Assembly (NCBI GenBank): GCA_051872415.1
Contig: JBJEDW010000061.1
Span: 3,986-35,985 of the forward strand
Direction of reading: 5' to 3'
Length of the DNA stretch: 32,000 bases
Source of the DNA: Bacilli bacterium
GTDB lineage: Bacteria; Bacillota_I; Bacilli_A; RF39; UBA660
Position 1 is the stretch's first letter. Each line of letters starts with the position of its first letter. The position numbers were made by a program, and so were the translations under genes. The notes beneath the pieces are model-generated. The model had not been told where the DNA came from. It was given only the letters and a program-made list of their open reading frames with translations, and did no database searches. Below, piece after piece: positions 800 through 23,681 of this stretch.

Positions 800-1771
800 T
801 CATTTATTAACTTTTTCTTGAAATACTTTGCTTACTAGATCTATACATTTTTTCTTTTGAGAATATCTTGGATGAACATATAAATTTAAAGTAATATTAA
901 CATTAGCGTGTCCTAACAATTCACTTACCGTTTTATAATCACATCCTAAAGAAATACAATTTGTTGCAAATGTATGTCTTAAAGAATGAAAATTGAAGTG
1001 TTTTATTTTTAATTCATTTAATATCTTATTAAAATATTTTCTATATGTTCTTGGCTCAATATATTTATCATTATTAGATAAAATATAGTTTTCTTTGGAT
1101 GTTTTTAAAGGCTTTAATAATTCCATAAAATCTTTATTAATAGGTATTTCTCTGTTAGCATTTTTAGTTTTTGGAGTTGTGATAATAACCTTAGAAATAT
1201 TTTTATCTTTGTCCTTAATATACACTCTTTGAATTGTCTTTGAAATTATTAATTTATTATTTTTAAAATCTATATCTTTCCATTGCAAAGCACAAAGTTC
1301 ACCAATTCTTATTCCTGAATATAAAGATATTAAAAATCCTATATTTTTTGTATTTCTATTATCTAAAACATAATTAGTGATTTTATTTTGTTCATGTTTT
1401 GTTAAAATATATATACTTTTTTCTTTATTATCTTTTGGATAATTAAATGATAATTCTATATGTTTTATTTTGCCTTCATTAATCCCTTTTTTAATACTTC
1501 CTTTTACAATAATTGTAATATCTTTAATAGTTTTTTCTGATAATCCACCTTTTTTATCCTTCCTTCCATTTTTAGACAACTCTAAAAGAAAATCTTGAAT
1601 AATCTTATGATTAATCTCTTTTAATGTGTAATTTCCTAATTTAGGAATTATATGATTAAAAATATTATTTGAATAATTTGCGTAAGTAGATTCCTTAATA
1701 TAATCTTTTTTTTCAATAAGCCACGTATAAATCCAATCCTTGTAAAGTATCTTTCTTGATTTAATAATCAT
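800..1771 (-). CDS. Tyrosine site-specific recombinase (phage-integrase family), candidate hsdS invertase
   Basis: 323 aa with the SGIRIGELCAL (Arg), HSLRHTFAT (H-x-x-R), LLGH and LYVH (Tyr) catalytic motifs. It sits between two inverted hsdS genes. Confidence 0.93.
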   Translation of the reverse strand: MIIKSRKILYKDWIYTWLIEKKDYIKESTYANYSNNIFNHIIPKLGNYTLKEINHKIIQDFLLELSKNGRKDKKGGLSEKTIKDITIIVKGSIKKGINEGKIKHIELSFNYPKDNKEKSIYILTKHEQNKITNYVLDNRNTKNIGFLISLYSGIRIGELCALQWKDIDFKNNKLIISKTIQRVYIKDKDKNISKVIITTPKTKNANREIPINKDFMELLKPLKTSKENYILSNNDKYIEPRTYRKYFNKILNELKIKHFNFHSLRHTFATNCISLGCDYKTVSELLGHANVNITLNLYVHPRYSQKKKCIDLVSKVFQEKVNK

Positions 1772-1830
1772 TTAATTCTTTCTCCTTTCCAAAGATATTA
1801 TATAGGAATAATTAATTACTACTTTTCAAG

Positions 1831-1860
1831 TATTAAACTTAAGGACTTGAAAAGTGGTGA
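1831..1860. repeat. Inverted repeat, hsdS 5' leader (right copy)
   Basis: Exact 30-nt reverse complement of 702-731, ending 4 nt before the ATG at 1865. It contains the GTGGTGA Shine-Dalgarno-like element. Confidence 0.9.
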
Positions 1861-1864
1861 TAAA

Positions 1865-2962
1865 ATGAATGTTCCTAAATTAAGATTTAAAGAATTTAAT
1901 GATGAATATATAAATCTAAAATACAAAGATGTTTTAAAAATAAAAAGTGGTAAAGATCAAAAACAAGTTGAATGCGAAAGTGGTATTTATCCAATTTTAG
2001 GAACTGGTGGACAAATAGGAAAAACAAATTCTTTCCTATATGATAAACCATCTGTTTTGATAGGACGAAAAGGGACAATCAATAAACCACAATATATGGA
2101 AACACCTTTTTGGACTGTTGACACTTTATTTTATTCCCATATATATGAACCTAATATACCTAAATATTTATTTTATTCTTTTCAAAATGTTAATTGGAAA
2201 AAATATGATGAATCAACAGGAGTTCCTAGCTTGAGTTCGTCTACTATCGAAAGTGTTGAGTGCAATATTCCATCAAAAGAAGAACAACTTAAGATAGCCG
2301 ATTTTCTATCGCTATTAGATAAAAAAATAGACCTTCAAACTAAGAAAATTGAAGACCTTAAGTTATTTAAAAAAGGACTAATTAAAGATTTTTATAATGA
2401 ATATAATTTAAGACAAATAAAAATAAAAGAAATAGGTAAAATAGTTACTGGAACTACTCCATCAAAGTCTATAAATAGTTATTGGGATAATGGTAATATT
2501 ACATGGGTAACTCCAACAGATATTAATGACAGTAGAGATATTAATGATTCATTTTTTAAAATTACTGATACAGGTTTAGATAAAGGAAAATTTATTCCTA
2601 AAAATTCAGTTTTAGTTACATGTATAGCTAGTATAGGTAAAAATGCTATTTTAAAAGTTGATGGATCATGTAATCAACAAATAAATGCAATTATACCTAA
2701 TAAAAATTTTAATTATAATTATGTATATTACTTAATTGAATCTATATCTAATTATATGAAATCTATTGCTGGAACATCTGCTACATCTATTATTAATAAA
2801 GAAGAATTTTCAAAAATAATAGTCAAAGTTCATTCAAAAGAGAAGCAGGATTATATTGCATCAGTATTGTCACAGTTTGAAATAAAAATACTATTAGAAA
2901 TTTCAAAATTAAATAAATTCTATCAATTAAAAAAAAGCCTTATGCAAAATATGTTTGTATAA
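1865..2962 (+). CDS. hsdS: Type I R-M specificity subunit HsdS (full length)
   Basis: Two target-recognition-domain halves separated by the conserved spacer SKEEQLKIADFLSLLDKKIDLQTKKIEDLKLFKKGL, with a C-terminal conserved helix LKKSLMQNMF. The track starts at TTG 1847. I prefer ATG 1865 (MNVPKLRFKEF), which parallels MKPKLRF of the other copy. Confidence 0.93.
   Translation: MNVPKLRFKEFNDEYINLKYKDVLKIKSGKDQKQVECESGIYPILGTGGQIGKTNSFLYDKPSVLIGRKGTINKPQYMETPFWTVDTLFYSHIYEPNIPKYLFYSFQNVNWKKYDESTGVPSLSSSTIESVECNIPSKEEQLKIADFLSLLDKKIDLQTKKIEDLKLFKKGLIKDFYNEYNLRQIKIKEIGKIVTGTTPSKSINSYWDNGNITWVTPTDINDSRDINDSFFKITDTGLDKGKFIPKNSVLVTCIASIGKNAILKVDGSCNQQINAIIPNKNFNYNYVYYLIESISNYMKSIAGTSATSIINKEEFSKIIVKVHSKEKQDYIASVLSQFEIKILLEISKLNKFYQLKKSLMQNMFV
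2301..2371. repeat. Inverted repeat, central hsdS spacer (right copy)
   Basis: See 197-267: 71 nt with 2 mismatches. Confidence 0.9.
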
Positions 2963-2968
2963 GGTTTT

Positions 2969-3592
2969 TTATAATCTTTCTATAATATGTAGATATTCAT
3001 CAATTGTGCTTGGAAATTTTGAATACGCTCTTCTATTATAATCAATAGATAAAATATTTAAATTTTTATATATTAGGTTTAAAATTTCATCAATATCATT
3101 ATAGGTTATTTTAAAATCTTCGTTTACTTTTCCATTATCATAAAAGTATTTTTTATCTTGATGAGCATAAACTTTATCTCTTTGAGACTTTATATTTTCT
3201 ATTTGCTTACTATATTTATTCAATTCCAATTTAAAATTATTAATATCATCTAAAACATTTACTTTTTTTACTAAAACTTTTTCTGTTATTTTTGTTTCTT
3301 CATTATAGAACTCATCAATAAATTCATTTAAAAATTGTTCTTTCTGATTTTCGCAACAGTTAATTAACTTAAATATACTTTTATCTTCCCTTTTATCTAT
3401 TAATTTTGCAATTTTCATTACAAATGAATATTTTAATGAATTTAAAACATTATATAAAAATCCATTTATTTGTTTTATCTCTTTTTCATTTCCCTGAACA
3501 TTACTTAATATACCTTTATATAATTCAAAATCACTTAATGCACTATTAACCATTTTGAAGTATTGTGAAAATTCACATTCTAATTTTATCAT
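2969..3592 (-). CDS. Hypothetical protein, HEPN-like (AbiU2-type R-x5-H motif), coupled to hsdM
   Basis: 207 aa and predicted helical. The SQRDKVYAHQD segment fits the HEPN Rx4-6H motif. Its ATG overlaps the hsdM stop by 1 nt (TAATG at 3590-3594). The functional call rests on the motif only. Confidence 0.5.
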   Translation of the reverse strand: MIKLECEFSQYFKMVNSALSDFELYKGILSNVQGNEKEIKQINGFLYNVLNSLKYSFVMKIAKLIDKREDKSIFKLINCCENQKEQFLNEFIDEFYNEETKITEKVLVKKVNVLDDINNFKLELNKYSKQIENIKSQRDKVYAHQDKKYFYDNGKVNEDFKITYNDIDEILNLIYKNLNILSIDYNRRAYSKFPSTIDEYLHIIERL

Positions 3593-5151
3593 TAAAGTTC
3601 CTCTAACCCTAGTTCTTTTAAGTAAACATTAAGTTCTTTATCTACTTCTGCTATTTGCTTATCAATATCTTTAAGATCTTGTTGAATAGCTTTAATATCT
3701 ATTTCTTCTTCCTCTTCAAATGTGTCTACATACCTAGGAATATTTAAATTATATTCATTTTCTTTTATTTCAGACATTGGAGCAACATGGCAATATTTTT
3801 CTATCTCAACTCTATTTTTATAAGTTTCAATAATTTTATCAACATCTTCATCTCTTAATCTGTTTTGATTTTTTCCAGCTTCAAATTCTTTAGAAGCATC
3901 TATAAATAAAATATTGCCTTCGTTTTCTCTGCATTTTTTAAATACTAATATACAAGTTGGAATACTTGTTCCATAAAATATATTAGCTGGTAATCCAATT
4001 ACTGCATCTAAATAGTTTTTTTCTTCAATTAAATATTTTCTAATTACTCCTTCTGACGCTCCTCTAAATAAAACACCATGAGGAAGAACTACTGCCATAG
4101 TTCCATTATCTGATAATTGGTATATCATATGTTGAATAAAAGCAAAATCTGCCTTTGATTTTGGTGCTAATTTACCATAAGCACTAAATCTTTCATCTTC
4201 TATAAACTTTGGATCAGCACTCCATTTTGCAGAATATGGAGGATTAGCAACTATTGCATCAAATTTCATATCTAAATGTCTAGGTTTTTCTAAAGTATCA
4301 TCGTTTTTAATATCAAAATGTTTAAATGAAACTCCATGTAATAACATGTTCATTCGAGCTAAGTTGTAAGTTGTAGAATTAAATTCTTGTCCATAGTATG
4401 AACTTACCTTACATTCTTTACCAACTCTTAAAAGTAACGATCCGGATCCACAAGTAGGATCATATACATTTTGAAGTTTTGATTTATTTAGCGTAACTAA
4501 TTTTGCAAGAATTCTTGATACTTGTTGTGGTGTATAAAATTCTCCAGCTTTCTTTCCAGCTGATGCAGCAAAGTTTGAAATTAAGTATTCGTATGCATCT
4601 CCTAAAACATCAATTTCCGCATCTTCATAATGAAAGTCTATATCATCTATTTTTAACATAATAGTTGAAATTAGTTTGGTTCTTTCTGCTTCGCCTCTAC
4701 CTAATTTAGAGTTGTTTAAATCCATATCTTCAAATAGATTCTCAAAATCATCTTCTGATTCATTACCTAAAGTAGATTCTGATATAACATTAACTGCTTT
4801 AGCAAGCATTGAGATATCAAATTTACCAGTTTTAATATTATCAATTAATGTACTCCATAGATATTCTGGTTCAATACAATAACCTATATTTTCTTCCTCT
4901 ATTAAATCGGACTTAAATTCTTGTGCTTGTTCTTTATCCTTGAACATGTCAGCATATTTCATTTTATTTCTTAACATTACATTTTCAACGTAATTAACTA
5001 AATTTTCAGATAAATATCTGTAGAATATTAATCCTAAGATATAATTTTTGAAATCATTAGCATCCATATTTCCTCTTAGGGAATTAGCAATACTCCAAAG
5101 TTGTTTTTGAAGTTCTGCTTGTTGTGATTGTTGTTTTTCTTCTCTTGACAT
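3592..5151 (-). CDS. hsdM: Type I R-M N6-adenine DNA methyltransferase subunit HsdM
   Basis: N-terminus has the HsdM_N pattern LWSIANSLRGNMDANDFKNYILGLIFYRYLSE. AdoMet motif DPTCGSGSLL and catalytic NPPY (IVANPPYSAKW) are present. Confidence 0.97.
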   Translation of the reverse strand: MSREEKQQSQQAELQKQLWSIANSLRGNMDANDFKNYILGLIFYRYLSENLVNYVENVMLRNKMKYADMFKDKEQAQEFKSDLIEEENIGYCIEPEYLWSTLIDNIKTGKFDISMLAKAVNVISESTLGNESEDDFENLFEDMDLNNSKLGRGEAERTKLISTIMLKIDDIDFHYEDAEIDVLGDAYEYLISNFAASAGKKAGEFYTPQQVSRILAKLVTLNKSKLQNVYDPTCGSGSLLLRVGKECKVSSYYGQEFNSTTYNLARMNMLLHGVSFKHFDIKNDDTLEKPRHLDMKFDAIVANPPYSAKWSADPKFIEDERFSAYGKLAPKSKADFAFIQHMIYQLSDNGTMAVVLPHGVLFRGASEGVIRKYLIEEKNYLDAVIGLPANIFYGTSIPTCILVFKKCRENEGNILFIDASKEFEAGKNQNRLRDEDVDKIIETYKNRVEIEKYCHVAPMSEIKENEYNLNIPRYVDTFEEEEEIDIKAIQQDLKDIDKQIAEVDKELNVYLKELGLEEL

Positions 5152-5160
5152 AATATCCTC

Positions 5161-7920
5161 CTATAAAAATTTCTTAAATATATTTTTTATAAATTCTTTT
5201 ACTTTATTTTTCACAATTCTTCTTTCCCAATAATCATCTATATCTATTGCTTCATTTATTTCTTTATCTGGAAAAATACTGCTATATTCATATTCATTAA
5301 TTATTTCATTTAATTTATCTAAATTAATTTTATTATTTAAAGCAAATTTTTTAATTTCTTTTTCTCTTTCTTTATTCATATGGTCATTGAAAGCAGCATC
5401 TATTGAATCAGCTTCTTTTAGTGCAGGTAATATAGATTTTAAGAAGCTCTTAATTAAATCAGCTTTTAAGAATAATTCATCATCTGTAATATTTGTTAAT
5501 TTACTTTCAATATCTGCAATATCACGTTTCTTTTGGTCTTCGTTTGTTAAATCAACATTTCTAATTAAATTAAGTATATATGAAACATTAATTCTATCAG
5601 TTTGAATTAATTCTAGCGAGAATGTAACATCATTTAAAATTGAACTTTTTTCTTTATCATTAGAAATTTTTCTGTATAACTCATAATATTTACTTCTATA
5701 ATCTTCAAACATTTGAGTATTAATAACATCATCAGCATTATCTAAATCAAATTGATTAAATGTTTTTAAGCTAACAAGTATTTTAGCAACATCTCTAAAT
5801 GCTAAAATAAACTCTTTTATATCTTCTTCTCTTTCTAGTTCATCAACACTATCAACAGTCGGAGTAATGCTTAGCAACTTATCTACAGCTTTATTAAATT
5901 TATCTAAATAAACAGGATATGGTGCCATTATTACAGTATCAATACTATCAGTTTGAGAGAATAATTTAACAGCTTCATCTACTCTAGCTTTAGTGGTTCT
6001 ATAACAAACTATATTCCCAAATGGTTTTGTTTCAGATTCAACTCTATTTGTTCTTGAAAATGCCTGAATTAAATCATGATATTTAAGTGGTTTATCAACA
6101 TATAAAGTATTTAATCTTTTAGCATCAAATCCAGTTAATAACATATTAACAACTATAACTATATCAATTTCTGTATTTTTTATTCTTTTGCATATATCTC
6201 TAAAATAACCATCAAAATTATGAGTAGAGAAATTTGTGTTGAATATTTTGTTATAATCTTCCATATATCTATCTAATACTTCTCTTGAATGTTCTGGATT
6301 TTTATCTAAATCTTCATTTGCTCCGCAAGTAAATATTGCTCCTATTTTTAAATCATGATTTATCTTTTTAAAAGCATCGTAATATTTTATTAGTAATGGT
6401 ATTGAAGATACAGTAAATAATGCATTATATTTTCTATCTCTTGTTTTAATATTATGATGATCAATAATGTGTTGAGCAATTAAGCCTACTCTTTCATATG
6501 CTAAGAATACTTCATCTGTATCTATCCCTTCCACCATAATGTCTTCTTCTAACGCAACTGTATTTGCTTCCATAAACTTTATATAGTCAACATTAAATCC
6601 TAATACATTTTCATCTTTAATAGCATCTTTTATTAAGTATGTATGTAAGCATTTTTCGAATATATCAGCAGTACTTCTACCATCTTGTGATGGATTTTCT
6701 TTAAATCTAGGAGTGCCAGTAAATCCAAAGTATTGCGCTTTACTAAATGTTTTAGAAATCTGTTTATGCATATCACCAAATTGTGATCTATGACATTCAT
6801 CTATTATGAATACTGTTTTTAAATCTTTATATTTTTCCATAATATGTGCATATTTAGGATTAGTACAAGCATTAGCCATTTTTTGAATTGTAGTTATAAT
6901 TAATTGCTTAGAACTATCTTTAATCTGCTCTATTAATTTATCAGTTTGATTAGTCATGTCAACGCAACCTGGGTCAAATTTATTAAATTCATCTAATGTT
7001 TGTTTATCCAAGTCCTTTCTATCTACTAAAAAGAATACTTGATTGATAGAAGGTTCTAAAGAAAGAATTTGGCTTGTTTTAAAAGAAGTAATTGTTTTAC
7101 CAGAACCAGTTGTATGCCATACATAACCATTATTACTTGTATCTAATGCACGAGATACAATATTTTCAACTGCATATACTTGATAAGGTCTCATTACCAT
7201 CAATGTTTTTTCTGTTTCATTAACAATCATATATCTTGCTATCATTTTTCCTATATGACACCTGTCTAAGAAAAACACACAAAATTGTTCTAAGTTATTA
7301 ATTCTATCATTATTTATATCAGTCCAATAAAAAGTAAATCCATAATTTAACTCTTGATCTCCATTTGCAAAATATTTAGTTTCTACTCCATTACTTATTA
7401 CAAATAATTGAATAAATTTATATAAGCCTTGATATGAATGCCTTTTATATCTCTTAATTTGATTAAAGGCTTCTTTCATATCAATACCTCTACGCTTTAA
7501 TTCAACTTGAACCAAAGGTAATCCATTTATTAAAATAGTTACATCATATCTATTTGTATATTTTCCTTCGACAGTAGTTTGATGAGTTACTTGAAATATA
7601 TTCTTACACCAATCTTTTGTATTAAATAATTCAATATAAACAATACTTCCATCATCTCTTTGAATATCCTGTTTTTGCCTTAATTCTTTTGCCGATTGAA
7701 AAACACCTTTACCAGATATTTTAACCATTAATCTTTCAAATTCTTTATCACTTAAATTTTTACCTTTAAGTTCTATTTTGTTATGAATATTGACTTGTTC
7801 TCTAAAATTTTGTTCTAATTCATTAACATCATTTATTACTACTTTAGAATACCCTTGCTTTGCAAGTTGATCTATCATACGATCTTCTAATCTTGCTTCA
7901 CTTTCATATACTCCCATCAT
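5161..7920 (-). CDS. hsdR: Type I restriction endonuclease subunit HsdR
   Basis: Has Walker A TTGSGKT, DEAH-box IIDECHRSQ, helicase C motifs (QAFSRTNR) and a long C-terminal helical domain. The track starts at TTG 7932. ATG 7920 or 7917 lies behind GGTAGGTG and is the more likely start. Confidence 0.96.
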   Translation of the reverse strand: MMGVYESEARLEDRMIDQLAKQGYSKVVINDVNELEQNFREQVNIHNKIELKGKNLSDKEFERLMVKISGKGVFQSAKELRQKQDIQRDDGSIVYIELFNTKDWCKNIFQVTHQTTVEGKYTNRYDVTILINGLPLVQVELKRRGIDMKEAFNQIKRYKRHSYQGLYKFIQLFVISNGVETKYFANGDQELNYGFTFYWTDINNDRINNLEQFCVFFLDRCHIGKMIARYMIVNETEKTLMVMRPYQVYAVENIVSRALDTSNNGYVWHTTGSGKTITSFKTSQILSLEPSINQVFFLVDRKDLDKQTLDEFNKFDPGCVDMTNQTDKLIEQIKDSSKQLIITTIQKMANACTNPKYAHIMEKYKDLKTVFIIDECHRSQFGDMHKQISKTFSKAQYFGFTGTPRFKENPSQDGRSTADIFEKCLHTYLIKDAIKDENVLGFNVDYIKFMEANTVALEEDIMVEGIDTDEVFLAYERVGLIAQHIIDHHNIKTRDRKYNALFTVSSIPLLIKYYDAFKKINHDLKIGAIFTCGANEDLDKNPEHSREVLDRYMEDYNKIFNTNFSTHNFDGYFRDICKRIKNTEIDIVIVVNMLLTGFDAKRLNTLYVDKPLKYHDLIQAFSRTNRVESETKPFGNIVCYRTTKARVDEAVKLFSQTDSIDTVIMAPYPVYLDKFNKAVDKLLSITPTVDSVDELEREEDIKEFILAFRDVAKILVSLKTFNQFDLDNADDVINTQMFEDYRSKYYELYRKISNDKEKSSILNDVTFSLELIQTDRINVSYILNLIRNVDLTNEDQKKRDIADIESKLTNITDDELFLKADLIKSFLKSILPALKEADSIDAAFNDHMNKEREKEIKKFALNNKINLDKLNEIINEYEYSSIFPDKEINEAIDIDDYWERRIVKNKVKEFIKNIFKKFL

Positions 7921-7947
7921 TACACCTACCAATCAATTTATATTTCA

Positions 7948-7956
7948 ATTATATCA
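7948..7956 (-). promoter_or_regulatory. Candidate extended -10 promoter for hsdR-hsdM
   Basis: The minus strand reads TGaTATAAT about 25 nt upstream of the hsdR start. There is no good -35. Confidence 0.4.
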
Positions 7957-8029
7957 CGAAAATTGGTAAACTTTGGATTTGAACTAAAAAATTATAAAAA
8001 AAAAGAAACTGCACTCTCTTATTACATAA

Positions 8030-8069
8030 TCAAAAATGAAAAATAGGGCTCTACCGCTAGATAGTGCCC
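8030..8069 (-). terminator. Intrinsic terminator downstream of the Abi_2 gene
   Basis: Minus-strand RNA is GGGC-A-CUAUC[UAGC]GGUAG-A-GCCC followed by UAUUUUUCAUUUUU. Confidence 0.6.
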
Positions 8070-8141
8070 TTGCAAAAATGTATTACCATTTTTTCCTTGC
8101 ATAATCATAATACCATATATTAATGATCATGTCAAACTATT

Positions 8142-9152
8142 TTAATCTGAGTTTACATTATAATTTTTTTCAATGATTTTTTTAAAATATAAATATACAG
8201 ATTTCAATAGTCCATTATTATTATAATACTCTTTATGACGAATTATTCTTCCAAAAAACAATTCATTAATGTCTTCTTTTACATTTTCCTTAATACCCTT
8301 GCTAGTTACTATTTCATTAAACATATATAACGCATAAGTCATTTGCCTTATTCTGGAATTACTCAATTTATTGTTTCTTGTTTCTTTACCTACTCCACAT
8401 TCTCTTAAATAATTAATAACTAATGTATCCGCTCTATGTAGATTATCTTTTTTATCTAGTTCTGATAAAACGCAAGAATTATGAGCTACTGCATTTCTAA
8501 GTTTTACTACTTCTCTTAAAATAAATATGTTTTTAAGTTCATTCTCTAAATTATATTCTTTAGAAAAAAATTCATAAAAATTAACTAATTCACCAAATGT
8601 AATTATTTCAAGAAATTCCCATACAGGAATATTTTCTAATTGTTGATTCTTATCTATATCGTATTTAGAAAAAATTTTTTTATAATATTCACTTCCTACT
8701 TTTTTAAAAATACTATTATGCACTTTTTTAGGAAACTTTTTATCATTGAAATCTCTTTCTAAATACATGTTAACAGATTTATAGCCATTTTCTTCTTCTA
8801 TGTTTTCAATTAAATTTAATATTCTTATTTTTAAATAATGTTCAATATCAATAATTATTTTAAAGAATAATAGTCTAACTCTATGATCTATAATAGCCAT
8901 ATCTTTAAGATAAGCAAAATCTAAATCTTGATATAATCCTTCATATTCACCTGCTGGAGATGGATATTTCAAAAAATTATTTTTATATGAGGTTAAGTTA
9001 TAATAGTTATTGTTATTTCTTAAATACTCTTCTGCATCCTTTTCACTAATTTTTTCAAACTTAATATTTTTTCTTTTTAAATACGGAACTAATTCGTTAA
9101 TTTTCATCATAGGTCTCAACTCTGATATTTTTTCATCTGTTTCAATCATCAT
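8142..9152 (-). CDS. Abi_2 family (AbiD/AbiF-like) abortive-infection protein
   Basis: 336 aa. The N-terminal pattern LKRKNIKF..EKDAEEYLRNNNNYYNLTSYKNNF and the DLDFAYLKDMAIIDHRVRLLFFKIIIDIEHYLKIRI core match what I recall of Abi_2 family proteins. Confidence 0.75.
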   Translation of the reverse strand: MMIETDEKISELRPMMKINELVPYLKRKNIKFEKISEKDAEEYLRNNNNYYNLTSYKNNFLKYPSPAGEYEGLYQDLDFAYLKDMAIIDHRVRLLFFKIIIDIEHYLKIRILNLIENIEEENGYKSVNMYLERDFNDKKFPKKVHNSIFKKVGSEYYKKIFSKYDIDKNQQLENIPVWEFLEIITFGELVNFYEFFSKEYNLENELKNIFILREVVKLRNAVAHNSCVLSELDKKDNLHRADTLVINYLRECGVGKETRNNKLSNSRIRQMTYALYMFNEIVTSKGIKENVKEDINELFFGRIIRHKEYYNNNGLLKSVYLYFKKIIEKNYNVNSD

Positions 9153-13257: not shown

Positions 13258-13668
13258 TTATTTTCCTTTTTTTGTTCCGTATTTTGAACGAGCTTTTTTA
13301 CGATCTTTAACGCCTTGTGTATCCATTGTTCCACGAACAATATGATAACGTACACCGATAAGGTCTTTTACACGTCCACCACGAATTAATACAACGCTGT
13401 GTTCTTGAAGATTATGTCCTTCTCCAGGAATATAAGCATCTACTTCTTTACCGTTTGATAAACGTACACGTGCATATTTTCTTAATGCTGAGTTTGGTTT
13501 TTTTGGTGTTTTTGTTCCTACACGAATACATACTCCACGTTTTTGTGGTGATGCAGTATTAGTAGCTTTCTTTTGTAATGTGTTCATTCTAATTCCAAGT
13601 ACTGGAGATTTAGACTTTCTTGTTTTGTCTTTTCTCTTCTTTCTTACTAATTGATTTATTGTTGGCAT
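13258..13668 (-). CDS. rpsL: 30S ribosomal protein S12
   Basis: [13 protein letters not shown]...[11 protein letters not shown] trimmed the start to ATG 13668, which lies behind AAAGGAG. The track's upstream extension is not S12-like. Confidence 0.98.
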
Positions 13669-13760
13669 AACTTCTCCTTTCCACACACATATCCAGGTGT
13701 ATCATTTTTCTTAATTTTTATTAGGTTTAGCTAGTAAACCCAATAAAATTCAACGATAGT

Positions 13761-13817: not shown

Positions 13818-14864
13818 TTATGATATGCAATTTTGATTATTGTATGAAGATTTAAATTTCATTTTATTAAAACATTTGTTTTTGAAATGATAACTATCCG
13901 CATATTTAATATGTCCAAGAAAAGATGCAATACTCATTTCAACTTTTGTAATATCTAAATTTTCTTGCTCGTATAAATTATTCCATGTTTTTATTTTCTT
14001 TATAATGGTTTTTTTGTTTCTTTTTCTTAATAGTACATAATCTTCATGGATTATGTATCCACAAAAATCACAACCTTTTTTAGAAGGATAATATTTACTT
14101 TTTTTATTTAATTCTAGTTTTAAGGTTTCTATTAAAAACTTTTCTATTTTTTTTAGAACTTCTTTAGCAGTTTTTTTATCTTTTACTAAAATAACAAAAT
14201 CATCCATATATCTACAGTAGCACTTTATTCTTAAACCAAATTTTATGTAGTGATCAAGTTCGTTTAAATAAATATTAGCAAAGTACTGACTTGTGTAATT
14301 GCCGATTGGTATTCCTTTTTCGTTAAAGTCTCCGATTATTGTTTTTGTAAGCTTTAAAAATTTTTTGTCTTTAAAGTTTTTCTTCAAAATGTTATATAAG
14401 GTTTCTCTATCAATGCTGAAAAAATACTTTTTAATATCAAGCTTTATTATATAATAATCACCATATTCTTTTCTCATACATCTCATATAGTGTTTTATCT
14501 TTTGGTATGATTTGTGAGTTCCTCTTCCTATTATACAAGCATAAGTGTCATTTATGAACTTAGGAACCATGTATGGTTTTAAAAATTCTTCTACATACCA
14601 CTGATGAATAACTCTATCTTTGATCGGAAGTGCTTTTATTAATCTTTCTTTTGGTTCATAAATTGTAAATTCTCTATATTTTGAAGGTGTGTAAGTTAAA
14701 TTTAAGAGTTCATCATATATAGATACTAAATTACTTTCTAAGTTTTGTTCAAAGTTTATTATTTCTTTTTTATTTATTTTACCGTCACGAGCTCTATAGA
14801 AAGCATTATATAAATTAGTAAACTCAAGTTTTTCGTCATACTTTACTTTAATCTTTTTTGGCAT
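13818..14864 (-). CDS. DGR reverse transcriptase
   Basis: 348 aa. It has the RT motif 4 variant PIGNYTSQYFANIYL (the IGxxxSQ form typical of DGR RTs) and motif 5 YCRYMDDFVIL (YMDD). It has no maturase or endonuclease extension. Confidence 0.93.
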   Translation of the reverse strand: MPKKIKVKYDEKLEFTNLYNAFYRARDGKINKKEIINFEQNLESNLVSIYDELLNLTYTPSKYREFTIYEPKERLIKALPIKDRVIHQWYVEEFLKPYMVPKFINDTYACIIGRGTHKSYQKIKHYMRCMRKEYGDYYIIKLDIKKYFFSIDRETLYNILKKNFKDKKFLKLTKTIIGDFNEKGIPIGNYTSQYFANIYLNELDHYIKFGLRIKCYCRYMDDFVILVKDKKTAKEVLKKIEKFLIETLKLELNKKSKYYPSKKGCDFCGYIIHEDYVLLRKRNKKTIIKKIKTWNNLYEQENLDITKVEMSIASFLGHIKYADSYHFKNKCFNKMKFKSSYNNQNCIS

Positions 14865-15208
14865 AGTCCTATCCAGTTATCTAAGTTTTTATCTACTGCA
14901 TTTATTTTTCTTGACCAAGCTTCGTAATTTTTAATGGAAATATATTTTTCTTTATACGATACTCTTATATAAAAAGAAATAACTTTTATATTTGATGAAA
15001 TTTCTTTTAGGTAACCTAATTTGAGGTTTATTTTGGTTTCGTTGTAAGCATAAATCAGATATTTATATCCTTTTTCTAATATTTTTCTAATATCACTGCA
15101 TAAAACATCACGTTCATATTTTGGAAATTTTTTCATTATGTTATATGAATAATAAAATAAATCTATATATCTATTGTAAATAATGGACTTTTCAAATTCT
15201 TTATTCAT
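14843..15208 (-). CDS. avd: Avd-like accessory variability determinant (four-helix-bundle protein)
   Basis: 121 aa and basic. The MKKFPKYERDVLCSDIR pattern resembles the 23S-rRNA-IVS/Avd family. It overlaps the RT start by 22 nt and the upstream ORF by 4 nt. Confidence 0.8.
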   Translation of the reverse strand: MNKEFEKSIIYNRYIDLFYYSYNIMKKFPKYERDVLCSDIRKILEKGYKYLIYAYNETKINLKLGYLKEISSNIKVISFYIRVSYKEKYISIKNYEAWSRKINAVDKNLDNWIGLCQKRLK

Positions 15209-15555
15209 AGTTTTTCTTTTAACCTTCCGATTATATTAAGGGCTTCTAGTGGGGTTAAGTTATTGATATCTACCTTTTCTAAAATTTTAATTATAGAATC
15301 TTTATCACTTTCTTTTACTATTTCATATTTTATTTTATTTTCTTTAAACATTTCTTGGTATTTTTTTATGGATTTAACAGGAAAACCACATTTTTTTATT
15401 TCATTATTGAAATTGCTTAATTTAAATTCAAATTTTTTATTTAGGAAAATAGCATCTTCAGCGAGCGCTATGTAGAATATTCCACTTTTAAATAAATATA
15501 TTATTTTTTCATTATTTCTTTTTAATTTTAAATATTTTTCGTATGTTTTACTCAT
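15205..15555 (-). CDS. MutS domain-I-like mini-protein (DGR accessory candidate)
   Basis: 116 aa. YEKYLKLKRNNEKIIYLFKSGIFYIALAEDAIFLNKKF...CGFPVKSIKKYQEMFKENKIKYEIVKE parallels the MutS mismatch-binding domain (QYL.LK...P..ILFFR.GDFYELF..DA...GIP.......Y...L...G..VAI.EQ). The C-terminal LTPLEALNIIGRLKEKL parallels the MutS C-terminal helix-turn-helix. RBS is AAAGGAG. Confidence 0.65.
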   Translation of the reverse strand: MSKTYEKYLKLKRNNEKIIYLFKSGIFYIALAEDAIFLNKKFEFKLSNFNNEIKKCGFPVKSIKKYQEMFKENKIKYEIVKESDKDSIIKILEKVDINNLTPLEALNIIGRLKEKL

Positions 15556-15651: not shown

Positions 15652-15807
15652 ATCTGTAGTTTCTAACTTTCACATATTGTTACTAGCTCTAAACTATCGT
15701 TTTTTATTTTTTTCTTGCACTTGCAAGAAAGGTAAAAGCTCTTTACTAAATTAGCTTTGTATTTAATCCTTGAACTAAATCTCTCACCATATTATTTAGT
15801 AATCCAA

Positions 15808-15938
15808 AGGGCACCAGGACAACCACGCGAGCCGAGTTGTTACTGTTGGCATTACCGTTGTTGTTGTTCGAGTTCATCACGCCTGCGTTAGCCCCATTGT
15901 TGTAGTTACCGCCACGTATGAACCAAGGGTTCGAAGCA
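15808..15938 (-). repeat. DGR template repeat (TR)
   Basis: 131 nt homologous to 16196-16326. On the coding strand it is rich in AAC/AAT codons (14 of them). The 72-aa track ORF here (15746-15964) is just the TR read in the VR frame. Confidence 0.92.
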
Positions 15939-16173
15939 GAACGAGACACTTTACAAACTTTCACCTATCTTAACAAATGTTAAGACCATATTCCTTGCCA
16001 CTTCTTGCGAAGCGGAAGGCAATCGGGACCCTGGCGGGAAAAGCCCGCTTGCCTTGTGCTTTATTATATTATATTGTATCACTATTTTCGCCTGATTTTA
16101 GTAAACTAAAATCTAGGAAAAATAGTGTTATTGTTGTTTGCCTTGCAAAAATTGGACAGTCGTCCGAAAGGGG

Positions 16174-16193
16174 CATAGTCCTAACGGACTATG
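16174..16193 (-). promoter_or_regulatory. Perfect 8-bp stem / 4-nt loop hairpin immediately 3' of the VR and stop codon
   Basis: catagtcc-taac-ggactatg, abutting the TAG stop (16194-16196). It is in the position of the hairpin/cruciform that guides DGR target recognition. Confidence 0.6.
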
Positions 16194-18287
16194 CTAGGGC
16201 ACAAGGACAACCACGCGAGCCGAGAGGAAACCGTCGGCATCACCAGGGTAGTAGTCCGAGCTCATCACGCCAGCGCTAGCCCCAGAGTCGCAGCCACCGC
16301 CACGTCCGAACCAAGGGCGCGGAGCAAATGCTACATATCCATAATCCGAATACCAACCTGCCCCCGATGTTGCTGTTACTTCTTTTACTGCATCTCCTAA
16401 TTTACTTCTTTTCTTTTGGGTAATACTTGTTCCAAAACTATATTTATCTAAGTATTTATTTTCTGGATAAGCTATTCCTGTATAACTTGTATATGTTACA
16501 CTTTCATATAGAATTCCAGTGTATCCTGAGTGATATCCTACATAATCTCCTGTGTTACTATATCCTGCCATCATTGTTGTTCCATCATTTGATACTATGT
16601 TACCCATTACATATTCCCAAGCACCACCTGACATATCATATATTCCATAGATATTTCCTGTTGTTGATGCAACTTTACTCATATCTTTTGTCGAACTTTT
16701 GGTATTTGTATTGTAATTTAATAAGTATCCATCATAGGTATAGAAACCATAACTATTATACGTAGTAGTTGATGTTTGATCAGTATATGTACCATTTATC
16801 GGTGTTTGTCCTCCGACATTTCCTCCGCTTCTTCCTGTATAGTATGAAGAACTATTATTTATATTTATTTCTTTATTTATTCCATATTTTGAGTGTGATA
16901 GGTATGCTACTGCTCCCCATTCTTGGTTTTTCATCATATGAGTATCATCTGTAGATGCAAATCCATATTTGTTGCCACTATCATTCATTGCCATTATGTT
17001 AGTTTCAAACGAACTTACTTTTTGACTTCTTAAACTTTGTACATCTGGTTTTATTGTTATATCGCTTATTGTTCCTGTTGTTTCAAATTTTCCTACCCAC
17101 ATTCCTTCTAGTTCTTGAGATCCAAATGTAAAGGCTGGATGATTATATGTTTTACCATTACAAGTACTATCTGTACATGTAGCATTTGTACTTTTTAATT
17201 TACAGGTTTCAGATGGATCTCCATCTGTTCCTGATATACTATCAGTACATGATATTTCTCCAGTTGTTTCTGTTCCATTTTCAAAAGTTATTTCTATTTC
17301 TTGAGGTTCACTTGTTACTGTTCCATCAGCATTATAATTCCATACTTTATACTTATATCTTGGTATCCATACTTGCATTGTTAAAATATCATCCATTGGT
17401 ATTGTTGTACCTGGACTTGCATTTTTATATGTACTTCTATTGGTTTCACTTACTGTTACACTATTTGCCCACATCTTATCGTTATAATCATACCATTTGT
17501 ATGTTTTGCTATTATTTGTACTATCTGCTTTTTTCCATACCTCTGCATCTTCATCATAATATACTGCAATCATATTACTTGTTAATACTGGTACATTTGC
17601 CCCACTTATATCTAAGTTATCCCTTGTTTTTACTCCTACTTTAAATTTATATTGATATTTTTTTACTGTCTGTGTATTTTCATCATAGAATTTACTTGCT
17701 TCTACTTTACTATCTAACCATACTCTTAATTTAAACTTCTTACTTATCTCTCTTGTTGTTCCATCATGTGTGTTTGTATCTGCATATATCATCTTTTCAC
17801 TATTTAAATCACTTATTTTTGTCGGATTTAACAAAACGTTCCCTTCATAATCTGTTAGATATACTTTTACTTCATCATCTGTTAATGCTGTCATATTTGT
17901 ATCTACACTTAATTTTTCTAAATATACTCCATATGTTATATCTATTGGTTTACTTGTTGTTGTTTTAACTGAAAAATCAAATGTTTCACTTTGGTTTTTT
18001 CCATCTGTATCACTTATTGGAAGAGCATTTTCTATACTTATTATATTGCTGTTGCTTTCTAAAAACTCTAGTGATACATCTCCTGTATTTATTGTATTTG
18101 CACTTCCTATAAAACCATAATTCCACACAGCAAAACTTATGCCCACAGAAAGCATAAGTAATATTACAAGTAATAGAATTGTTATTATTTTCCTCTTATT
18201 ATCGCCTTTTTCTATAGAGGTTTTAGTTAAATTTGCCCCCCCCCCCCCAGACGAACATTTGTTTTGTTTTTTAGATAGTTTTTTCAT
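16194..18287 (-). CDS. DGR target protein: N-terminal membrane anchor, beta-rich ectodomain, C-terminal C-type-lectin/FGE-sulfatase-like domain carrying the VR
   Basis: 697 aa. The KRKIITILLLVILLMLSVGISFAVW segment is a TM helix. GIYDMSGGAWEYVMGN resembles the FGE/CLec motif GxYDMxGNxWEW. The C-terminal PWFGRGGG...ARVVV is typical of DGR VR scaffolds. Confidence 0.9.
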   Translation of the reverse strand: MKKLSKKQNKCSSGGGGANLTKTSIEKGDNKRKIITILLLVILLMLSVGISFAVWNYGFIGSANTINTGDVSLEFLESNSNIISIENALPISDTDGKNQSETFDFSVKTTTSKPIDITYGVYLEKLSVDTNMTALTDDEVKVYLTDYEGNVLLNPTKISDLNSEKMIYADTNTHDGTTREISKKFKLRVWLDSKVEASKFYDENTQTVKKYQYKFKVGVKTRDNLDISGANVPVLTSNMIAVYYDEDAEVWKKADSTNNSKTYKWYDYNDKMWANSVTVSETNRSTYKNASPGTTIPMDDILTMQVWIPRYKYKVWNYNADGTVTSEPQEIEITFENGTETTGEISCTDSISGTDGDPSETCKLKSTNATCTDSTCNGKTYNHPAFTFGSQELEGMWVGKFETTGTISDITIKPDVQSLRSQKVSSFETNIMAMNDSGNKYGFASTDDTHMMKNQEWGAVAYLSHSKYGINKEININNSSSYYTGRSGGNVGGQTPINGTYTDQTSTTTYNSYGFYTYDGYLLNYNTNTKSSTKDMSKVASTTGNIYGIYDMSGGAWEYVMGNIVSNDGTTMMAGYSNTGDYVGYHSGYTGILYESVTYTSYTGIAYPENKYLDKYSFGTSITQKKRSKLGDAVKEVTATSGAGWYSDYGYVAFAPRPWFGRGGGCDSGASAGVMSSDYYPGDADGFLSARVVVLVP
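16196..16326 (-). repeat. DGR variable repeat (VR), including the A-free 3' IMH-like block (16196-16223)
   Basis: Aligns without gaps to the TR. I count 24 substitutions at TR adenines. The A-free block TCGGCTCGCGTGGTTGTCCT is identical in both. Confidence 0.92.
18236..18248 (-). repeat. Homopolymeric G13 tract (C13 on the + strand) in codons 13-17 of the DGR target gene
   Basis: Read directly as gCCCCCCCCCCCCCag, encoding SGGGGA. The gene is in frame at this length. Confidence 0.95.
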
Positions 18288-18508: not shown

Positions 18509-19404
18509 TTAGTATTGTAATACATTTAAATGTTTTAGTATGTTAGTAAGGATTGTTTTGTCTTCAATTAAGTTTATTGCGAAGCATTTTTTTCCTAGAT
18601 CTTTGAATGATGTCTTTGAATGATGAACCACAGTGATATAGAAGCTTTTTGTCTATAATTATAAATCTATCATGAAAAGCATTGCTAGTGAGTGCTGTTA
18701 TGTTGTGGTACTGACTATTATATTTTTAATCAACTCTTTGTTTAAATTTTTACTGTATACTTTTATTGGAACCTGGATGTTTCTTAATAAATCAAATAGC
18801 TTTTTTCCTGCGTAATTATCTATGATTATTATTTCTTCTTTGGCTTTTGATAATATATCAATCATTAGAGAGTAAGCATCGTATATTTGTCCTTCGAAGA
18901 AGATGTGATTATTTATTTTGTTATTATCTAGTTTTTTGAATATGATATCAAATTTATTATCGTGATCTATTATTTTTGTTTCTATATTAGATAATCTGTT
19001 ACTATAATTATTTGTTGCTATATATTTTTTCATTTCTACGAATGCATCCATTATTTTTATACTTATTTCTTCTGCTACAGGTGTTCTTAATATTGAACTT
19101 AGCATCGCTACTCCTTGCTCTTAAACACATATGTTCTATTATATTTTCTTCCACGAGTTTCTACAGTATTTTTTTTGGTTTCAGATTAAAACCAAAAAAT
19201 TTTTGATTCTTCTTCTGTTAATCTAAACATAAATCTTTCTGGGAATCTATTGATATGTCTTTTTACTGCCAAGTTTATAGATTTTGTCCCATTTTTACAA
19301 CCATAAAGCATAGCTAGGTCAGAATCAAGCATTACTTGTTTGCCTCTGATTTTATATATTAGATCTTCTATTTTTATATTATCTTTTGTTATTATTTCGT
19401 TCAT
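18509..19404 (-). pseudogene. ORF6N/KilA-N-type DNA-binding protein gene, decayed by at least four lesions
   Basis: The track fragments at 19186-19404 and 18698-19105 are pieces of one gene. After ...RFPERFMFRLTEEESKIFWF comes an in-frame TAA, followed by a frameshift before EQGVAMLSSILRTP. A further frameshift precedes AFHDRFIIIDKKLLYHCGSSFKD. A 13-nt tandem duplication (18600-18625) then breaks ...SFKDLGKKCFAINLIEDK.... Confidence 0.8.
18600..18625. repeat. 13-nt perfect tandem duplication (tctttgaatgatg x2)
   Basis: Read directly. Removing one copy restores the ORF6N C-terminal frame. Confidence 0.9.
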
Positions 19405-19535
19405 AAGAATTCACCACTTTCGATATAAGCTAAATTTATTAATTTGTCTAATTAAGTTTATCAAAATAATATATTTGATATTTTTTTATTATTTAGATGA
19501 TTTAAACTTATAAATAAAAGAACTCTTCTATTTTT

Positions 19536-20384
19536 TTAGATGAGCTCTTCTATTTCTTCTTTAGAAAGACCAGTACATTCAGATATTGTACTTATATTCA
19601 TACCTTTATTAAGCATATTTTTTGCTATTTCATACTTTTCATTAGTTGAACCTTGTTCATAACCTTGACTCATTCCAACTTCAATTCCTTGTTCATATCC
19701 TTCTTTAATTAGAGTATTATGTACCATTTCTGCGTCTTTTTCTTTCGAGACTACCTCTATAAACTCTGGATCTTCATTTAGTTTTTCTATCTTTTCTTTG
19801 TACTTTTCCATCATTCTATCTCCTTTGCATACCACATCTAAATCTTTTGGCTCTAAATCTAACATTAAAAAATATTTATACTCTAGAGCCTTTTTCTTAT
19901 CTCCATGATACCACATATTCATTATTTTATCCATGTTTATTTCTATTATTTTAAGTTTATCACAGTAACATTTATTGTTATCTTTATCATACATCACGTA
20001 ACAAGACTTGATATCTTTTTCTATTCCTAGTCCCCATGTTATATTAAGCTGAATATGCATTTTAGTATCTAAATAGTCGTCACCTTTAAACACACTATTT
20101 GAAAAAACTGATGAGATATAAGCAAAGTTTCTTATAGGAAGAGAATTGTAATATCCATTGTTTATTTCTAAGTTAATAGTTTCAGTTTTTGTTTTAACAA
20201 GGACATCTAGTGTTTTAGTCTTTATTTTAATATTTGGTTTTTCAAGTTCTTTTGGATCAAGTACTAGTTCTTCAATACTTAAATCTAAGGTCTTTTCTAA
20301 AAAATATTTAAGCAAATCTTTTTGAGATTCACATCCAATAGCATTTTTAAATCCAGCATCGTATCTTGCGGTGTAAAAAGCCAT
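19536..20384 (-). CDS. Rpn-family recombination-promoting nuclease / PD-(D/E)XK putative transposase
   Basis: YDAGFKNAIG...DLLKYFLEKTL...LDVLVKTKTETINLEINN forms the nuclease core. C-terminal repeats EGYEQGIEVGMSQGYEQG are followed by the IAKNMLNKGMNISTISECTGLSKEEIEEL helix-turn-helix. I chose the start at ATG 20384, behind GGAGGTG. Confidence 0.85.
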   Translation of the reverse strand: MAFYTARYDAGFKNAIGCESQKDLLKYFLEKTLDLSIEELVLDPKELEKPNIKIKTKTLDVLVKTKTETINLEINNGYYNSLPIRNFAYISSVFSNSVFKGDDYLDTKMHIQLNITWGLGIEKDIKSCYVMYDKDNNKCYCDKLKIIEINMDKIMNMWYHGDKKKALEYKYFLMLDLEPKDLDVVCKGDRMMEKYKEKIEKLNEDPEFIEVVSKEKDAEMVHNTLIKEGYEQGIEVGMSQGYEQGSTNEKYEIAKNMLNKGMNISTISECTGLSKEEIEELI

Positions 20385-20489
20385 TTTATTCACCTCCAAA
20401 AGCACTATAAACTAAATAAAATAAGATGTAAAATGACCATTTAGAAGATTTGATCAAAAGAAAAAGATGAAACATAAATATTGGTATAA

Positions 20490-23325: not shown

Positions 23326-23545
23326 ATCTCCTTTTGTTTTTTATAAAAAAAGCCTTCATCCAAAGGACGAAGAGCTCGTGGTACCACCTTATTTTATAAT
23401 ATTTCTATTATCTTATTTGGCTATAACGTTTGCCTTACGGATTATCTTACTTGGTTTCGGATAATCTGCTAAAAAAGCTACCTTCAACTATCTTTATTAT
23501 CTATTTACACCATACATAGACTCTCTTTAAATATTAATAGTTTAC
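23326..23545 (-). promoter_or_regulatory. T-box riboswitch leader of valS, with terminator at 23345-23376
   Basis: The minus strand has AAAGAGAG, a distal-loop-like GGUGUAA and a GAAA-capped stem III. The T-box sequence AAUAAGGUGGUACCACGAG (23377-23395) follows. The terminator is CUUCGUCC-UUU-GGAUGAAG plus U7. Confidence 0.85.
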
Positions 23546-23564
23546 TCCTCTTTTTTTCTTGCTT

Positions 23565-23681
23565 TTAATATAATTTTGATATGTTTACTATTTCTCCAGC
23601 GACTAGGAATATTACCATTAGAATAACGAATGCTAAGATTAGAAAAGCCATTAGTCCCCAGCCATGATTGTTTAATTTCAT
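23565..23681 (-). CDS. Candidate 38-aa hydrophobic small protein (not in the ORF track)
   Basis: MKLNNHGWGLMAFLILAFVILMVIFLVAGEIVNISKLY. The ATG lies 4 nt after the GAGGTG embedded in the trxB stop region. It has one predicted TM helix. Confidence 0.4.
   Translation of the reverse strand: MKLNNHGWGLMAFLILAFVILMVIFLVAGEIVNISKLY

Follow-up and report, generated by a model that had tools for sequence, protein, structure and literature searches.

Why should an intergenic sequence be repeated at the end of the neighbouring gene, and differ from that copy mostly at one base? The question is raised by a 32,000-nt stretch of DNA from a Bacilli bacterium (contig JBJEDW010000061.1 of assembly GCA_051872415.1), here called the window. 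Our answer, to which we give a probability of about 0.93, is that the two copies are the template repeat (TR) and the variable region (VR) of a complete chromosomal diversity-generating retroelement (DGR) of the MSL-containing "Architecture D", with the order target(VR)-TR-MSL-Avd-reverse transcriptase (RT), in uncultured gut Bacilli. A further question concerns the source of the few differences between the copies that do not fall at adenines.

Adenine-directed divergence of a template and its copy

The repeat search delimited a direct repeat of 131 nt whose copies, 388 nt apart, are 79% identical. The donor copy, the TR, is non-coding and intergenic (15808..15938, minus strand), and the recipient copy, the VR, is coding (16196..16326, minus strand). 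We compared them base by base on the minus strand because all the neighbouring genes are encoded there. The alignment has no gaps and 28 mismatches, 24 at TR adenines (86% of the total) and four elsewhere, which means that 24 of the 34 TR adenines, but only 4 of the 97 other bases, are mismatched (Fisher's exact p = 1.6e-14). A sequence-only reading of this DNA had proposed such a pair with adenine-specific substitution and had counted 24 changed adenines among 34 by hand; the computed alignment bears out the proposal and the table returns the same count.

Might this be an ordinary duplicated segment that diverged through point mutation or gene conversion and has nothing to do with a retroelement? 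The mere presence of a repeat is all that speaks for it. The mismatch spectrum, concentrated at one base of one copy, rules this explanation out; moreover, only the coding copy varies between samples, the non-coding one being invariant, and an RT, an Avd and the RNA elements of a DGR are adjacent. We leave it practically no chance, and return to the TR/VR pair of a DGR.

In the frame of the open reading frame (ORF) 16194-18287, the TR reads RSASNPWFIRGGNYNNGANAGVMNSNNNNGNANSNNSARVVVLVP. Its adenines occupy codon positions 1, 2 and 3 in 17, 15 and 2 cases, and 14 of its codons are AAY, the number reported earlier. No change at an adenine can turn any of its 19 adenine-bearing codons into a stop, in line with the stop-proof template first recognized by eye, and the theoretical repertoire amounts to 7.0e18 proteins encoded by 2.95e20 DNA sequences, where the initial estimate had been more than 10^16. 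The VR ends in an adenine-free, GC-rich block that resembles an initiation of mutagenic homing (IMH) site (TCGGCTCGCGTGGTTGTCCTTGTGCCCT, 16196..16223, minus strand; TR counterpart 15808-15835). Within the window the two blocks show a single difference, G>T at 16203, and an adenine-free 20-mer of the block occurs twice in the window, once in the TR and once in the VR, with no occurrence expected by chance.

The genes of a DGR surround the pair. Read 5' to 3' on the minus strand, the locus contains the target gene with the VR, a hairpin, a 257-nt spacer, the TR, an RT-14 RNA, MSL, Avd and RT. The DGR reverse transcriptase (13818..14864, minus strand, 348 residues) matches Pfam RVT_1 with E = 2.7e-20 and has 4083 homologues at E <= 1e-20; its IGNYTSQ (the I/LGxxxSQ motif) and YMDD are both invariant in an alignment of 16 homologues. 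The accessory protein Avd (14843..15208, minus strand, 121 residues) reaches 58.3 bits with Pfam bAvd (cut-off 40) and E = 7.9e-16 with NCBIfam DivGenRetAVD, the latter under that model's 80-bit cut-off.

Natural diversity of the variable region

Has this element been at work? As a stand-in for within-sample read mapping we used the 10 contigs from other metagenome assemblies that encode an identical RT protein, found by exact-protein look-up (L001-L007 are labels among them). The TR is identical at every adenine in all 10 of these same-species contigs, and the VR exists in six distinct alleles, polymorphic at 34 of 34 adenine columns and at 9 of 99 others (p = 1e-23). The test put forward in the sequence-only reading, that VR polymorphism should coincide with TR adenines, thus has a clear outcome when contigs are compared between samples. 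Because the VR varies at the columns of TR adenines while the TR remains constant between samples, we regard the element as a working, adenine-specific DGR: the data support that it has been diversifying and that its RT is specific for adenines.

The nine variable non-adenine columns are informative in their own way. Two are concerted positions of the 3' block, two lie in the codon at the 5' edge of the homology, four are private to the window allele and one is private to L001. At the two concerted positions the strains differ from one another while the TR and VR of any one strain agree; information must therefore have passed between TR and VR after the strains split. Among the five other alleles, products of the same RT protein, a single non-adenine change is found, which excludes a generally lax RT.

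Several of the same-RT contigs end in the VR or next to it, as would happen if heterogeneity within a sample interrupts the assembly. The codon at the 5' edge of the homology (16327-16328 on the VR side, 15939-15940 on the TR side) is TCT in every TR, and in the VRs of the same-RT contigs it is TTT, TAT, ACT, TCT or TAT; the 70 nt upstream are nearly invariant. This variation may reflect the processing of the junction during cDNA integration; hypervariability of the boundary codon was looked for in a second species and not seen there. Exact look-ups with the window's MSL and Avd proteins returned contigs of the same strain only, and exact-pattern scans for the hairpin flanking the VR or for the spacer gave no match in the genome collection or in the metagenome contigs of the Joint Genome Institute (JGI).

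RNA elements around the template

A structured domain lies 3' of the TR (15656..15799, minus strand) and matches the Rfam family RT-14 (RF02921) with 51.2 bits, above the gathering score of 48.1. The match starts 9 nt past the TR and covers the full model (positions 1-144, 144 nt, E = 6.8e-6 in a local search). Because just one of 20 related loci reaches the gathering threshold, this model covers a narrow part of the DGR clade to which the window belongs; it also lacks the 5' pairing partner found upstream of the TR. Conservation of the RNA in relatives was shown by direct complementarity and covariation and not by Rfam scores.

The relatives share a motif just 5' of the TR, made of a hairpin followed by AGGGAUUARRUUGUAA. 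In essentially every unit examined, the 10-nt core of this motif finds a perfect complement in a segment 3' of the TR. In the window, the two strands of this long-range duplex bracket the TR: the 5' strand AGGUGAAAGU (15957..15966, minus strand) is complementary at 10 of 10 positions to the 3' strand GCUUUUACCU (15730..15739, minus strand). The latter is followed by the stem-loop UUCUUGC-AAGU-GCAAGAA (15712..15729, minus strand) and by the A-run AAAAAUAAAAAA (15700..15711, minus strand), and in the units of relatives the 3' segment never occurs without a short stem-loop and an A-rich run behind it. A set of 23 distinct relatives shows pairing in 99.6% of cells and changes on both sides in 9 of the 10 pairs, a degree of pairing somewhat inflated by the choice of the partner as the best complement within 250 nt, all partners lying in the same context. 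None of 500 shuffles and no slid register approaches the observed pairing. Directly 5' of the duplex strand stands the hairpin GGTCTTAAC-ATTT-GTTAAGAT (15967..15987, minus strand), supported by relatives, about a dozen of which have arms that differ yet remain complementary (GTCTTAAT/ATTAAGAC, GCATTTAT/ATAAATGT, ATGTTAAT/ATTAACAT and GTATTTCA/TGAAATAT). Per-sequence shuffle tests of this hairpin are not significant in such AT-rich DNA, and MAFFT misplaced 5'-hairpin sequences of differing loop length; we consider its conservation across relatives likely.

The arrangement recalls the cPRT Stop, which cryo-electron microscopy of the Bordetella phage DGR RNA resolved as an avd:Sp duplex, a stem-loop and adenosines engaged in A-minor contacts, and which was predicted in 207 of 278 DGRs (Handa et al., bioRxiv 10.1101/2023.10.23.563531). 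Both parts of that layout are found in the window, the duplex between upstream and downstream strands and the stem-loop with adenosines after the downstream strand. The RNA thus matches the cPRT Stop in its layout and, by analogy, is predicted to terminate and license cDNA synthesis.

On the other side of the spacer, a perfect 9-bp hairpin with a 4-nt loop (GCATAGTCC-GTTA-GGACTATGC, 16173..16194, minus strand), identified from sequence and fold, begins at the last base of the stop codon of the target gene. Nearly all of 27 relatives have a strong hairpin within a few nucleotides of where the VR ends, and we take the one of the window as a candidate target-recognition hairpin or cruciform. In the other clade of the species (L001, L002 and L005-L007) this hairpin has a C-A mismatch (GCATAGCCC / GGACTATGC), and the VRs there are diversified nonetheless. 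The whole 257-nt spacer between VR and TR is strongly structured (z = -6.0 relative to shuffles). It includes a long AT-rich hairpin, found as an inverted-repeat pair and by folding (16080..16127, minus strand), possibly the end of the target transcript, and two GC-rich stem-loops 5' of the TR, found by folding (15998..16055, minus strand; ~45% GC against ~25% around them), which may form the 5' part of the TR transcript. In relatives, the place of these stem-loops is taken by a strong hairpin unrelated in sequence. Neither 15998-16055 nor 16080-16127 matched Rfam at E <= 1, and a promoter and terminator scan called fewer sites than in shuffles and none in the VR-TR spacer, so that we claim no promoter.

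Put together by analogy with the Bordetella phage DGR, these elements suggest the following course of events. An RNA spanning approximately 15656-15990 would be transcribed, and its 5' flank (15957-15966) would pair with the 3' domain (15730-15739), looping out the TR. A complex of RT and Avd would bind the 3' domain (RT-14), from which cDNA would be primed in cis, and the RT would copy the TR with random incorporation confined to adenines. The duplex should bring synthesis to a halt, just before 15957; the published cPRT model is expected to transfer to the window because the layout of the RNA is the same. Directed by the adenine-free 3' block common to both copies and by the hairpin after the stop codon, the cDNA would then take the place of the VR and form the new end of the target gene. 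Because the adenines sit in AAY and similar codons, 19 codons could be recoded without ever producing a stop. Finally, MSL probably acts on the mismatched heteroduplex of cDNA and VR, for example by shielding it from mismatch repair, which is our conjecture.

Several points weigh against reading the locus as a functional DGR, besides the inflated pairing of the duplex. A distinct IMH/IMH* difference is not evident: the adenine-free 28-nt blocks of TR and VR are identical in sister strains, and for this reason the G>T at 16203 is not a conserved difference of that kind. The diversity that we see in the VR is diversity between samples. The VR allele of the window was found only in the contigs L003 and L004, which are 100% identical to the window over 3.6-3.9 kb. 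This identity might be thought to indicate a frozen VR, a suggestion that we rejected, as the two contigs are, judged by that identity, the same strain as the window. The C-type-lectin or FGE-like fold of the end of the target protein is suggested by weak sequence signals. Lastly, transcription, cDNA synthesis and homing are steps that we infer by analogy, as are cis-priming, the stop function, the route of integration and the role of MSL.

Template repeats in related elements

To place the element among its kin, we scanned one genome per species with an RT profile, which gave 447 relatives, of which 80 were kept. Almost all of these are metagenome-assembled genomes (MAGs) labelled as uncultured Bacilli, Tenericutes, Erysipelotrichaceae or Candidatus Onthousia. 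They come from the gut of humans, mice, rabbits and chickens, and include one closed chromosome of 1.5 Mb. The nearest relative, "Bacilli bacterium LOHA18_bin.015", has 92% identity. The order MSL-Avd-RT is found in about 58 of the 80 loci, many relatives have a homologous target whose VR lies 240-420 nt upstream of the TR, and in the pooled TR/VR pairs of relatives 529 of 577 mismatches are at adenines.

Some relatives hold more than one TR unit. An uncultured Bacilli MAG (L060, CANQZD010000005.1, 61-3782) has about 10 tandem units of 367 nt directly upstream of MSL-Avd-RT and devoid of ORFs. Every one of them combines the 5' motif with a TR-like segment and the 3' RNA domain; the units differ mainly in the "variable" codons, and one shows a compensatory change within its own long-range duplex. 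From these features the array looks like a series of template RNAs that function; the stretch examined yielded no VR. In L030, four tandem TR units follow the target gene (1461-3600). There, nucleotides 1-100 of the VR differ from unit u3237 by four changes at adenines and no other, and nucleotides 101-148 differ from unit u1753 only at adenines, whereas every other pairing leaves 5-7 non-adenine mismatches; by this comparison, the VR looks like a mosaic copied from two templates. A third case is a sister species, with RT P0066 (L095-L104), whose strains have one or two TR units 398 nt apart and whose TR alleles differ at 15 columns. Its VR varies at 28 of 30 invariant-adenine columns but at 2 of 93 invariant non-adenine columns, and its target is a convergent protein of 1100 residues with a weak match to Bact_surface_Ig-like. 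In a limited search of the literature we found no description of tandem TR arrays.

Sources of the non-adenine differences

Where do the four non-adenine differences of the window come from? They are, as TR>VR changes, T>C at 15934/16322, T>G at 15918/16306, C>T at 15857/16245 and G>T at 15815/16203. Three of them had been listed in the sequence-only reading. The fourth, the T>C that turns TCG into CCG, lies just 5' of the core considered there and had been missed, and the approximate VR positions 16290 and 16233 given for two of the others were off by 12-16 nt, the actual sites being 16306 and 16245. All four changes are on the VR side and private to the window strain, because the TR base is common to every TR and to the other VRs. 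Two are synonymous (CCC>CCT and CTG>CTT), one replaces Ser by Pro (TCG>CCG), and one replaces Ile by Gly (ATA>GGA), a residue that adenine mutagenesis cannot reach from that codon. The G>T at 16203 lies between the two concerted positions of the 3' block, and therefore inside the transferred tract. The two explanations offered in the sequence-only reading, drift since the last homing event and a less strict RT, are reasonable as far as they go; the single non-adenine change of the five other alleles rules out an RT that is lax in general, and templating by another TR had been overlooked. Drift, an error linked to homing, and a TR allele or copy absent from our sample could each explain the four changes. 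The background divergence between the strain clades, about 2-3.5%, predicts some one or two changes in 97 sites over the whole interval, which puts four changes by drift after homing on the high side.

An excess of changes on the VR side might indicate that the DGR, while intact in the species, is frozen in the window strain, the G>T at 16203 having impaired homing and the VR having drifted thereafter. This would fit the imbalance between the window allele, with four non-adenine changes, and the five other alleles of the same RT, with one in total, as well as the two synonymous changes and the position of the G>T in a tract that the flanking concerted substitutions show to be normally copied from the TR. 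Yet RT, Avd and MSL are all intact, strains whose VRs are diversified encode the same RT protein, the TR retains all its adenines, and the RNA elements and the VR hairpin are perfect. Even a VR frozen since the split of the clades should have accumulated only the one or two changes given above, and stasis gains no support from contigs that share the window VR by being the same strain. We consider a frozen element unlikely. The changes could instead be by-products of homing, if the RT misincorporates beside a misread adenine or if errors arise during cDNA integration. Differences other than A-to-N changes occur in 23% of DGRs, for which an explanation by homing errors has been raised (Wu et al.). 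A mutated adenine adjoins two of the four window changes (ATA>GGA and AAC>CCT) and likewise the single change of L001 (T AAC > G GGC), and in 37 TR/VR pairs of relatives (L014-L090) non-adenine mismatches amount to 3.7% beside a mutated adenine and 0.9% elsewhere (odds ratio 4.2, p = 7e-6), still a four-fold excess when the three noisiest pairs are removed (p = 0.0016). The same adjacency could, however, result from selection that tolerates extra changes in variable codons, or from other TR alleles with different bases in the codons concerned, and the other two window changes are far from any adenine. We regard an origin in homing errors as possible, but as falling well short of probable.

The tandem units of relatives suggest yet another source, a second TR copy or an earlier TR allele that differed from the present one at these positions. 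Complete units are repeated 10 times in L060 and four times in L030, and come singly or in pairs in strains of the sister species; the two parts of the L030 VR match different units with adenine-only differences; and another TR allele of the population accounts, in the sister species, for 13 of the 18 non-adenine mismatches that separate a VR from the TR of its own strain. In the window's own species the evidence goes the other way: the 32 kb of the window contain a single TR and each same-species contig likewise has just one, the two TR alleles known differ only at two positions of the 3' block and explain none of the four changes, and these are scattered singletons that form no block. Templating by another TR is thus a doubtful source of the window's changes. 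A broader proposal builds on the same relatives: in this family of gut Bacilli DGRs the TR would not be a fixed master, as its units would duplicate, diverge with an adenine bias and write different parts of the VR, and the changes of the window would be footprints of TRs that were lost or escaped sampling. We see this as improbable at present. If it were true, "non-adenine mutagenesis" in the family would largely be TR turnover, opening sequence space beyond the reach of adenine-only change.

Target and accessory proteins

What does the DGR diversify, and with which helpers? The target gene (16194..18287, minus strand) encodes a variable protein of 697 residues, defined by its ORF and translation, with the VR as its last 44 codons and a single N-terminal hydrophobic segment as an anchor. 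It has 5884 homologues at E <= 1e-5. The match to Pfam FGE-sulfatase is below threshold (E = 0.0017), as are the matches to this family in 16 of 36 members of the target family. The family profile found 5VF4, the Thermus DGR variable protein TaqVP, as its top PDB match at E = 0.19, which is below significance, phmmer with the target found no match in the PDB, and an AlphaFold model of the C-terminus built from a 36-sequence alignment had a mean predicted local distance difference test (pLDDT) score of 44 and was not used for a fold search. Known DGR variable proteins with C-type-lectin or FGE-like folds (TaqVP 5VF4, TvpA) likewise carry the VR at the extreme C-terminus, but the similarity of the window target to the FGE-sulfatase and TaqVP profiles is weak and below significance. 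About 35 nt upstream of the VR homology, outside the coverage of the TR, three clustered G/A differences at 16361, 16363 and 16365 (minus strand) separate the window strain (TCGGGGGCA) from the other clade (TCAGAGACA), in a stretch that is otherwise identical.

The MSL accessory protein (15205..15555, minus strand, 116 residues) consists of a MutS domain I (Pfam MutS_I, E = 3.3e-11) and a short C-terminal stretch. MSL is a published class of DGR accessory proteins that defines "Architecture D" (Wu et al., PMC5758913), described as a small protein (112-283 residues) homologous to MutS domain I and encoded beside avd in a DGR (Wu et al. 2018, PMC5758913). The window protein fits this description in its length, its homology and its position adjoining avd. 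The profile of its family matches MutS in the PDB with E = 3.4e-7, with a second, weak stretch at residues 824-852 of E. coli MutS: the family ends in DINxITPxEALNxLxELK, which aligns with the last ~30 residues of E. coli MutS, and full-length MutS outscores C-terminally truncated crystal constructs by 5-7 bits. In the literature consulted on MSL proteins of DGRs we found no description of this MutS-like C-terminal stretch. The family retains the GxFY and CGFP motifs of MutS domain I, and the mismatch-contacting Phe (F27) is invariant, whereas the position of its partner Glu is Ile. With domain I and a C-terminal tail alone, and so lacking domains II-V with the ATPase, and with a Phe-x-Glu motif devoid of its Glu, MSL is not a canonical MutS. 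Since host MutS lowers homing 5- to 10-fold in Bacteroides (bioRxiv 10.1101/2024.11.15.621889), it is plausible, as a conjecture, that MSL is a mini-MutS that occupies mismatches or interferes with MutS.

Chromosomal setting

Directly downstream of the DGR lie rpsL, rpsG, fusA and tuf, and upstream of it a PD-(D/E)XK transposase-like gene, the T-box-controlled valyl-tRNA synthetase gene, lgt and uvrA. As the flanks are housekeeping rather than phage genes, the element is chromosomal and not part of a prophage, and a phage origin was ruled out. The gene rpsL (13258-13686 in the window) is also found 1-3 kb downstream of the RT in several related species (L042, L053, L063, L069, L078, L082, L088 and L094), and rpoC is just upstream of the target in L094. 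The rpoC/rpsL neighbourhood may thus be a recurrent site for the DGR family of the window.

The housekeeping block has defence and mobile genes on both sides: an Abi_2 protein and a Type I restriction R subunit downstream of tuf (800-9152), and the PD-(D/E)XK transposase-like gene with an ORF6N-domain gene just upstream of the DGR target (19186-20405). The T-box leader (23360-23568, minus strand, 114 bits), ahead of the valyl-tRNA synthetase gene, is ordinary and fits a Bacillota host.

Comparison with known retroelements and implications

How does the element compare with those already described? The prototype, the DGR of Bordetella phage BPP-1 (mtd-VR, avd, TR, brt), has in common with it an RT and an Avd, a TR/VR pair, adenine-only mutagenesis, AAY-rich stop-proof template codons, a ligand-binding protein with the VR at its C-terminus, a hairpin with a short loop right behind the VR, and a duplex of upstream and downstream RNA that brackets the TR and comes with a stem-loop and adenosines (cPRT Stop). 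The window element differs in being chromosomal and not in a phage, and in having an extra MutS-like gene. Its order target-TR-MSL-Avd-RT places the 5' strand of the duplex in an intergenic RNA and not within avd. The IMH/IMH* pattern that sets directionality in the Bordetella phage is not clear in the window, and the target is a membrane-anchored protein of 697 residues instead of the tip of a tail fibre. Closer in gene content are the MSL-containing DGRs of "Architecture D" (Wu et al. 2018), for example in Legionella, and the Bacteroides elements Bfr, Bth and Bun with Msl, which share the small MutS-domain-I protein beside avd and RT and are cellular rather than phage-borne, as is the one of the window. 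The differences here are the host clade of uncultured gut Bacilli, the target family, and an MSL with a stretch resembling the C-terminus of MutS.

Adenine bias, AAY codons, avoidance of stops and occasional non-adenine changes are established properties of DGRs. The architectural type of the window element is a known one, and DGRs abound in its host group; the tandem TR arrays of its relatives look less familiar.

Overall, our results provide natural evidence of activity for a well-resolved DGR in a poorly known group of gut Bacilli with small genomes. The population data show that one and the same RT protein leads to almost purely adenine-directed variation. The covarying duplex lends independent comparative support, from a clade distant from the Bordetella phage, to the cPRT Stop architecture that was proposed recently, and the tandem TR arrays and mosaic VRs of relatives suggest a route past adenine-only diversification. 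The element sits beside a core translation operon and is aimed at a membrane-anchored surface protein, which is presumably varied to change what the cell binds.

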